NCBI GenBank assembly: GCA_948471055.1
Contig: CAOKQZ010000004.1
Coordinates: forward strand, 9,331 to 73,330
Direction: 5' to 3'
Length of the DNA: 64,000 bases
From: an uncultured Clostridium sp.
GTDB taxonomy: Bacteria; Bacillota; Clostridia; TANB77; CAG-508
Part shown: piece after piece, positions 24,087-24,217 of the stretch
Layout of the letters: each line of letters starts with the position of its first letter
Position numbering within the stretch: position 1 is the first letter of the stretch
Made by a program: the position numbers and the translations under genes
Notes under the pieces: generated by a model
What the model was told of the DNA's origin: nothing
Seen by the model: only the letters and a program-made list of their open reading frames with translations
Databases searched by the model: none

Positions 24087-24217
24087 GCACGAAGCTAATA
24101 ATCGATTTCTTTTCGAAATGGAGACCCGACAGCCCTTTGAGGCGGGGGAATACCCGTGAGCTTGGAGGGCGAAATGAAGAAAATAAATCGATTATTAGCT
24201 GGGAGCGGAAACCCAAA
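24087..24217. repeat. Structured intergenic repeat, family 2, copy 1
   Basis: A 57-nt core (24122-24178) is identical to the reverse complement of 39111-39167. It is enclosed by a perfect 16-bp stem (24093-24108 / 24185-24200). Confidence 0.75.

Follow-up and report, generated by a model that had tools for sequence, protein, structure and literature searches.

The window, by which we mean the whole analysed stretch of 64,000 nucleotides from a contig of an uncultured Clostridium species, carries two copies of a hairpin-forming repeat, each lying between two genes of a minus-strand operon. Copy 1 separates the genes for MutS (24225-26450, minus strand) and an FprA-like flavodiiron protein (22882-24051, minus strand), and copy 2 separates those for RmlC (39249-39830, minus strand) and RmlB (38076-39044, minus strand), as identified by Pfam. 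Both copies contain the same 57-nt core, AGACCCGACAGCCCTTTGAGGCGGGGGAATACCCGTGAGCTTGGAGGGCGAAATGAA, which occurs at exactly two places in the window, 24122-24178 on the plus strand and 39111-39167 on the minus strand, with no mismatches; a 57-nt core match was found in none of 100 dinucleotide-preserving shuffles. Relative to its own operon, copy 2 is therefore sense and copy 1 antisense. A further flank outside the stem, GCGGAAACCCAAA, is likewise shared, with two exact occurrences in the window where 0.07 would be expected. Coincidental similarity or an artefact of assembly is a negligible explanation, given the result of the shuffles and the recurrence of the element in independent assemblies and sequencing runs. 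No third copy is present in the window and a 10-kb extension of it (74 kb together).

In copy 1, the whole inserted unit spans about 152 nt (24073-24224, plus strand), as judged against the empty 28-nt mutS-fprA spacer of the relative L025, and the match to model R1 covers 24082-24211 on the same strand with 151.6 bits. An alignment of eight copies places a basal 5' tag, TAGCACGA, at 24085-24092. The 5' arm of the long stem follows at 24093-24114 and pairs with the 3' arm at 24179-24200: its first 16 nucleotides, AGCTAATAATCGATTT (24093-24108), form a perfect helix with 24185-24200, and the stem then continues inward past 1-nt bulges as UUUUC/GAAAA. Within the arms lie the 5' half of a purine-rich collar, GAAAUGGAGA (24115-24124), the 5' strand of a short closing helix, P1 (CCC, 24125-24127, paired with GGG at 24167-24169), a 39-nt apical module, GACAGCCCTTTGAGGCGGGGGAATACCCGTGAGCTTGGA (24128-24166), which includes the hairpin GCGGG-GGAAUA-CCCGU, and finally the 3' strand of P1 with the 3' half of the collar, CGAAAUGAA (24167-24178). 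The basal 3' tag, GGGAGCGGA, and a subtype-specific tail, AACCCAAA, complete the copy at 24201-24217, all on the plus strand. Copy 2 extends on the minus strand from basal tag to tail over 39071-39205 (model R1, 142.9 bits), with the 5' arm GCCCCGTAATGGGATTAATTTTT at 39175-39197, the same 39-nt module at 39123-39161, the 3' arm AAAAATTAATCCCATTATGGGTC at 39088-39110, and the basal 3' tag GGAAGCGGA at 39079-39087; the end of its tail lies 27 nt upstream of the start codon of rmlB. Here, the perfect stem formed by TAATGGGATTAATTTTT and its own complement extends outward to 23 positions (39197-39175 with 39110-39088), among which there are one G.U and one C.U. The fold energies of the two copies lie well below those of shuffled sequences (z = -5.8 and -5.0). 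The sequence-only reading had already reported the identical inverted core, the enclosing perfect stems, the common outer flank, and the opposite orientation of the copies within minus-strand operons. All of these observations were borne out, and both stems proved to be longer than had been claimed, the first inward and the second outward.

The remainder of the window offers several observations of its own. Adjacent to copy 1, mutS is split into two overlapping open reading frames within 24225-26835 (minus strand), encoding domain I (26371-26835) and domains II-V (24225-26450). Truncated MutS proteins of 719-743 residues occur in many independent assemblies of relatives, others having intact proteins of 868-870 residues, and the split appears to be a genuine frameshift affecting mismatch repair in the lineage of the window. 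An asparagine synthase gene (20331-21765, plus strand) is also split, into overlapping frames at 20331-21053 and 21037-21765, and is intact (611-615 residues) in the relatives L028 and L029; several other genes, including a miaB-like gene and dapA, are split in the relative L025. The polysaccharide locus contains an AAA_21 ATPase with an RloB-like partner (55845-57724, minus strand) and two AAA_14/DUF4143 ATPases (58836-61600, minus strand), which are candidate defence or abortive-infection genes. A type II pair of RelB antitoxin and YafQ toxin is encoded at 6689-7232 (plus strand), and an 802-residue open reading frame at 1725-4133 (minus strand) has no Pfam match at E ≤ 1e-5.

Comparison of the copies found in relatives reveals a common architecture, which from base to tip consists of a basal tag, an AT-rich stem, a purine-rich collar, the 3-bp closing helix P1, and the GC-rich 39-nt module. 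The family consensus of the basal 5' tag is TAGCRYGA, and its 3' partner is GGNAGCGGA; the GC of TAGC forms invariant GC/GC pairs with the GC of AGCGGA in the 3' tag. In the subtype found in the window, the 5' tag is followed by an AT-rich arm of 16-28 nt, the collar GUAAUGAAGA, CCC, the module GACAGCCCUUUGAGGCGGGGGAAUACCCGUGAGCUUGGA, GGG, the collar CGAAAUGAA, the complementary arm, and the 3' tag. Across the family, the arms comprise 16-28 bp and are separated by a spacer of 50-76 nt. Variant F has Watson-Crick pairs (GCUAC/GUAGC) in place of the 4x4 internal loop that otherwise lies between the tag pair and the arm. This variant, which also has a 28-bp perfect stem and the substitution U9A in the module, was observed in L010, where it (7256-7385, minus strand) and a subtype E copy (2024-2153, plus strand) lie inverted on one contig, 5 kb apart; as with the pair in the window, such inverted identical cores could support inversions.

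The sequence-only reading had taken the different but equally well paired stems of the two window copies as classic covariation. Two paralogous copies with different stems are insufficient for that conclusion, which does hold for a wider set. Among eight copies representing six arm subtypes, 11 of the 39 consensus stem pairs are compensatory, with both sides changed, and 98% of the cells are paired, a level reached by none of 500 shuffles and by none of the slid controls. The arm sequences of subtypes A, B, C, and E differ almost completely. The closing helix behaves in the same way: its forms CCC/GGG, UCU/AGA, UCC/GGA, and GUU/GAC covary in all three pairs, which are 100% paired in the eight variants. 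The proposal of a selected structure in RNA or single-stranded DNA is thus upheld.

The apical module, by contrast, hardly varies. It is identical or one substitution off in every copy from a MAG locus and in the two true metagenome matches, the variation being limited to C8U in L014 and U9A in variants F and G. As the other positions never vary, the internal helices of the module are predictions only. The hairpin GCGGG-GGAAUA-CCCGU is robust in all predicted folds, unlike the remainder of the module, and the fold energy of the module as a whole is unexceptional (z = -1.7). The other nested helix put forward earlier, GCCCU/AGGGC, can form only with the type 1 collar and so applies to the window subtype alone; relatives without GGGC use another, covarying 3-bp helix instead. 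One and the same module is carried by at least four collars or stems, namely type 1, type 2 (variants H and J), L013, and L014, with type 2 having the form UUUUGGAAAAAUUACGGUCU-module-AGAUCUAAUUUUGGAAAAA, which appears at the ends of contigs from several runs. In run X20, a multi-copy variant (depth ~32) changes CCCGUGAG of the module to CCCCUUGU, as read from 30-nt contig ends; its contigs align with L003 4774-4843 and with 39134-39180 of the window. This change shifts the register of the GC hairpin by one and keeps four G-C pairs.

Two lines of evidence assign the selected structure to a particular strand. Wherever a position of the arms or P1 departs from Watson-Crick pairing in favour of a wobble, the element strand has G.U and never A.C; the G.U carriers are copy B, copy C of L003, L023, L013, and variant H. 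In addition, the element strand folds better than its complement, with -50.6 versus -45.3 kcal/mol for copy 1 and -39.9 versus -25.1 kcal/mol for L023. Together, these observations mean that the selected structure belongs to one strand, as RNA or single-stranded DNA, and that the stem and closing helix are selected for pairing on that strand.

Drift in the stem and constancy in the tip are seen side by side in copy D, the orthologue of copy 2 in L007. The surrounding region is 87% identical to the window over 2.4 kb, and the collar and module are 100% identical over ~75 nt, for which 0.87^75 gives ~3e-5. Over the same element, 17 of the 46 arm positions differ (8 of the 23 in the 5' arm), mostly with compensation: in seven pairs, both partners have changed and still pair. 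Identity of the module extends to L003, L004, L010, and L013, whose loci have a GC content of 24-33% and are otherwise without similarity to the window. Gene conversion between copies could homogenise the cores within a genome, but it is insufficient to account for identity between otherwise dissimilar genomes, which requires selection or horizontal spread. The apical module is under selection, or subject to homogenisation, at the sequence level. A run of 39 invariant nucleotides is not expected of a purely selfish, old, and immobile repeat, and argues for a function at the level of the host or of the RNA.

When species-representative genomes were scanned for exact matches to 43 nt of the core, 11 loci in 7 MAGs were returned, all of them carrying the label uncultured Clostridia or Clostridium. 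Two divergent members, L013 and L014, came from scanning metagenome contigs by 20-mers, which also gave one GC-rich chance match, and a scan of ~430 kb for long hairpins with a GC-rich spacer returned only elements of the hairpin family. The existence of many copies in relatives settles the earlier question of whether the repeat might be confined to two. In contrast, ~290 kb from other relatives contained no copies, so the distribution is patchy. All public runs containing the core are mouse-gut samples, human runs lying outside the search so that host restriction is not proven, and the core is present in all mouse-gut metagenome runs compared. In four DNA metagenomes, its summed depth was ~460 versus ~12 for unique flanks, about 35-fold. 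Contigs consistently break inside the core, as expected of tens of copies, which is a hindrance in practice: the shared core interrupts De Bruijn assemblies, and contigs end inside it in every run compared.

The element had not been recognised as any known motif, and database searches gave the same answer. At the gathering threshold, Rfam 15 finds only a tRNA in the whole window, namely tRNA-Leu (CAA) at 73-155 (minus strand), which is also the only match from ARAGORN, so the tRNA/tmRNA scan has nothing at the element; positions 24000-24300 have no Rfam match even at E ≤ 10. There was likewise no match to the element in a BLASTN search against plasmids and phages or in a 23-mer scan of viral contigs, and the core sequence strings retrieved nothing from the searchable literature. 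The exact arms of copies 1 and 2, taken as guides against phages, are absent from the viral contigs and do not recur elsewhere in the window. The genes next to the copies have varied functions, including mismatch repair, rhamnose synthesis, fatty-acid synthesis, AddB, MinC, and acetate kinase, and the element is not tied to any one gene class. All copies sit between genes of co-directional operons, about one third of them antisense to local transcription. We conclude that the element represents an undescribed family of intergenic hairpin repeats of ~130-150 bases, found so far in uncultured AT-rich mouse-gut Clostridia.

The unit has been inserted at different loci and in different genomes. 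Between L003 and L004, the copies of subtype C share 94% identity over 180 nt, with no similarity beyond; subtype C lies sense between a DUF1292-like gene and a membrane-protein gene in the former and antisense downstream of fabZ in the latter. The mutS-fprA spacer exists in three states. In the window and its 96-97% identical relatives, it holds copy 1 in antisense orientation; in L025-L027, whose MutS is 84% identical, it is empty and only 28 nt long, which places the insertion in the window at ~24073-24224. In L023 and L024 (MutS 87% identical), it holds a sense-oriented hairpin (12630-12747, plus strand, in L023, and the same in L024) with the basal tags of the family (TAGTGTGA ... GGAAGCGGA) and similar AT-rich arms, on which a 50-nt GC-rich tip, GAAGGUGAGAACGCGGAGUCCCAAGUGGCAGUUACGAGUGUCGAGCCGUA, takes the place of the module. 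This tip has no detectable similarity to the standard module on either strand, and the L023 variant has only chance-level matches in Rfam. Both window loci are occupied in four related MAGs, so the copies are mostly vertically inherited and current mobility is low or absent. In the relatives retrieved with RmlC in search of an empty rmlC-rmlB site, either the order of the genes differed or the contig stopped at a GC hairpin unrelated to the element.

How the unit moves is less apparent from its ends. The boundaries deduced from L003 versus L004 and from the empty site suggest only a possible TAG/TA repeat, the number of independent insertions being small, and no terminal inverted repeats conserved across copies were discerned with confidence. 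The 61 open reading frames of the window encode no transposase, reverse transcriptase, or recombinase, and searches of plasmids, phages, and the loci examined revealed no parent element. Among the relatives, a Y1 transposase was encountered in L031 alone (78% MutS identity), as a 129-residue protein of an IS200-type insertion sequence (4440-5110). We rejected it as a mobiliser, for its end hairpins, of the type CCCCAGC...GCTGGGG, are unrelated to the element.

Transcription through the element was assessed in RNA runs represented by unstranded contigs, two further runs described as 454 metatranscriptomes behaving like DNA. The core is covered in true metatranscriptomes, and one contig spans rmlC, the 5' arm, and the core of copy 2, which fits read-through transcription into this copy. 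The core-to-flank ratio is 2-4 in RNA-seq contigs versus ~35 in DNA and, contig depth being a crude measure, argues weakly against an abundant, stable small RNA. Promoter and terminator scans of both copies gave nothing consistent, with no promoter at a conserved distance, and the element is probably not an independent gene. Neither copy has a terminator-like site, and the 3' tails (GGNAGCGGA...) lack a U-tract, which led us to reject an intrinsic terminator. A 13-codon open reading frame, MKTRQPFEAGEYP, starts in the collar, but has no ribosome-binding site and is absent from L013, L014, H, and J, while an open reading frame downstream of GGAGG in the core is conserved in neither frame nor sequence. 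As these short frames are not conserved across subtypes, the element is not coding.

Knowledge of dispersed structured repeats comes largely from proteobacteria and from a small number of Firmicutes in culture, and in those families the arms are the conserved part. The element resembles the REP/REPIN-RAYT system in being extragenic, hairpin-forming, and high in copy number, in occurring in either orientation within operons, in combining mostly vertical inheritance with patchy lineages, and in tolerating G.T(U) in its stems. Both also carry a short tag at the 5' base of their hairpins. REPs end in GTAG (PMC3733652, PMC3479197), and GTAG repeats were not reported from Firmicutes in PMC3733652. 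Here, the tag is NTAGC, with an invariant TAGC at a distance of 4-5 nt from the stem foot. Roughly half of the copies have G before it and so read GTAGC, namely those of subtypes C, E, F, and G together with some of subtype A; in B, D, and copy 1 of the window, this base is C or A. There are also differences. REPs are imperfect palindromes of 20-40 nt with stems of 6-13 bp and tiny loops, whereas the element has 130-150 nt, arms of 16-28 bp, and a spacer of 50-76 nt; REPINs conserve their arms around a variable spacer, whereas the element has variable arms and an invariant 64-nt tip; and the window has no RAYT (Y1 HUH) gene among its 61 open reading frames.

Being small, non-coding, multi-copy, and variably present between related genomes, the element also has some of the properties of a MITE. 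Bacterial MITE-like structured repeats have been reviewed (PMC3184786). Correia elements (Neisseria), ERIC/IRU (enterobacteria), BOX/RUP (pneumococcus), and bcr1 (Bacillus cereus group) share with it a length of 100-180 nt, an intergenic location, multiple copies, co-transcription, long hairpins, presence/absence polymorphism, and the lack of an encoded protein. In those families, however, terminal inverted repeats are conserved and a target duplication can usually be defined, whereas the element conserves only the basal tag and tip, with no target duplication or parent insertion sequence identified. The inverted pattern of conservation and the swappable tip set it apart from REP, REPIN, Correia, ERIC, BOX, and bcr1. 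Integron attC sites function as a folded single strand, as we propose for the element, and also conserve pairing rather than stem sequence, but they conserve the outer R/L boxes (R''/R') around a variable centre and occur in cassette arrays beside an integrase; the element has an invariant centre and dispersed copies, and the open reading frames of the window include no integrase. Small self-cleaving ribozymes (twister, twister-sister, pistol, hatchet, and hammerhead) have a conserved core of 40-60 nt, a variable closing helix, many dispersed copies in each genome, and an enrichment in gut Firmicutes, all of which recall the element. It differs, in a comparison made by sequence alone, in having no match to an Rfam model and no internal covariation. 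Inspection by eye for hammerhead, twister, HDV-like, guanidine-III, SAM-III, K-turn, and sarcin-ricin motifs gave fragmentary resemblances, mostly to the type 1 collar, which is absent from other subtypes, and we discarded these candidates.

The description of the family as dispersed, non-coding repeats with structure in a single strand, a drifting paired stem, a frozen 39-nt tip, and a history of movement is well supported. What the element does is a matter of weighing several readings. The one we favour, with a confidence that is about even, is that it is a non-autonomous, REP/MITE-like repeat that works through its folded strand, with the tip as a putative docking site for one trans-acting factor and with side effects on the processing of operon mRNA in sense copies. 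The active form would be the folded single strand, either RNA, where operon transcription reads through a copy, or single-stranded DNA, arising in replication or transfer. The apical module would dock a single factor encoded elsewhere in the genome, which may be a nuclease or recombinase responsible for mobilisation, or else a protein that binds RNA. Where a copy is sense, its long perfect duplex may additionally serve as an RNase III target or as an exonuclease barrier in the polycistronic mRNA. Several results weigh against this reading: the 61 open reading frames of the window include no mobilising enzyme, neither a target duplication nor conserved terminal inverted repeats could be delimited, both window loci are stably occupied in four related MAGs, the constancy of the 39 nt speaks for a function in the host or the RNA, and the fold of the module is thermodynamically ordinary. 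The main rival, which we regard as doubtful, reduces the hairpin to a mere carrier and makes the 39-nt module closed by P1 a functional RNA of a new class, which may be a small self-cleaving ribozyme, an aptamer for a ligand or protein, or a sponge for a protein. The invariant core has the size of an aptamer or ribozyme and a covarying closing helix, it is conserved far above its flanks, it sits on at least four different collars or stems, it belongs to a strand-specific structure with G.U pairs, and it is present in metatranscriptome contigs; multi-copy dispersal restricted to Clostridia would parallel the twister, pistol, and hatchet ribozymes. Such a role fits less well with the lack of an Rfam family at E ≤ 10, the unexceptional predicted fold without internal covariation, the third or so of copies that are antisense to local transcription with no conserved promoter, and the L023 hairpin, which retains the scaffold and swaps the module; the low ratio of core to flanks in RNA relative to DNA counts weakly in the same direction. 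The more specific proposition that the module is a new class of self-cleaving ribozyme or of high-affinity protein or metabolite aptamer, spread through gut Clostridia on a mobile hairpin carrier, appears to us rather unlikely.

That every copy lies between genes of co-directional operons, with perfect duplexes of 16-28 bp, and that transcription reads into copy 2, would also suit a domesticated cis-acting element of mRNA processing or stability, in which the duplex would be cut by RNase III or block exonucleases, the tip would recruit an RNase or chaperone, and the expression of neighbouring cistrons would be uncoupled. In line with this, G.U pairs in the arms occur only in sense copies (B, C in L003, and L023) and not in antisense ones (A, E, and C in L004), but this asymmetry comes from 8 copies and gives a Fisher p of ~0.2. 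Moreover, the orientation is mixed, so that roughly one mRNA in three has the tip on the wrong strand, the distance to stop or start codons varies, and the gene contexts are unrelated, for which reasons we hold the cis-acting reading to be unlikely. Placement independent of orientation and a tip conserved at the level of sequence rather than structure would suit an element acting as DNA, such as a cruciform or hairpin site for a chromosomal protein, or a recombination substrate. In DNA hairpins, too, G.T is the most tolerated mismatch, and the distance between inverted pairs is 15 kb in the window and 5 kb in L010; the identical inverted cores in the window, which flank part of the capsule locus, could mediate inversions. 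Against this, the contigs compared contain no joints or strand switches, and a double-stranded binding site needs neither strand-asymmetric wobbles nor strand-asymmetric fold energies. A single-strand mechanism specific to the lagging strand is disfavoured by the two opposite copies in one co-oriented gene block and by the independence of orientation from the likely direction of replication. Overall, we consider action as DNA very unlikely.

Irrespective of which reading applies, the element reverses the usual pattern, in that the stem drifts but never loses its pairing, whereas the tip is unchanged between genomes without shared synteny. This combination implies a specific partner, be it a protein or a chemical activity, in a common uncultured lineage of the mouse gut. 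Orthologous copies, plus one spacer that occurs both empty and with a swapped-tip version, provide a tractable system for studying how such elements move, and the same system bears on the question of whether they are parasites, domesticated operon punctuation, or carriers of an RNA function. If the functional-RNA reading were true, the scaffold with alternative tips, as exemplified by L023, would be a small modular vehicle for structured RNAs.
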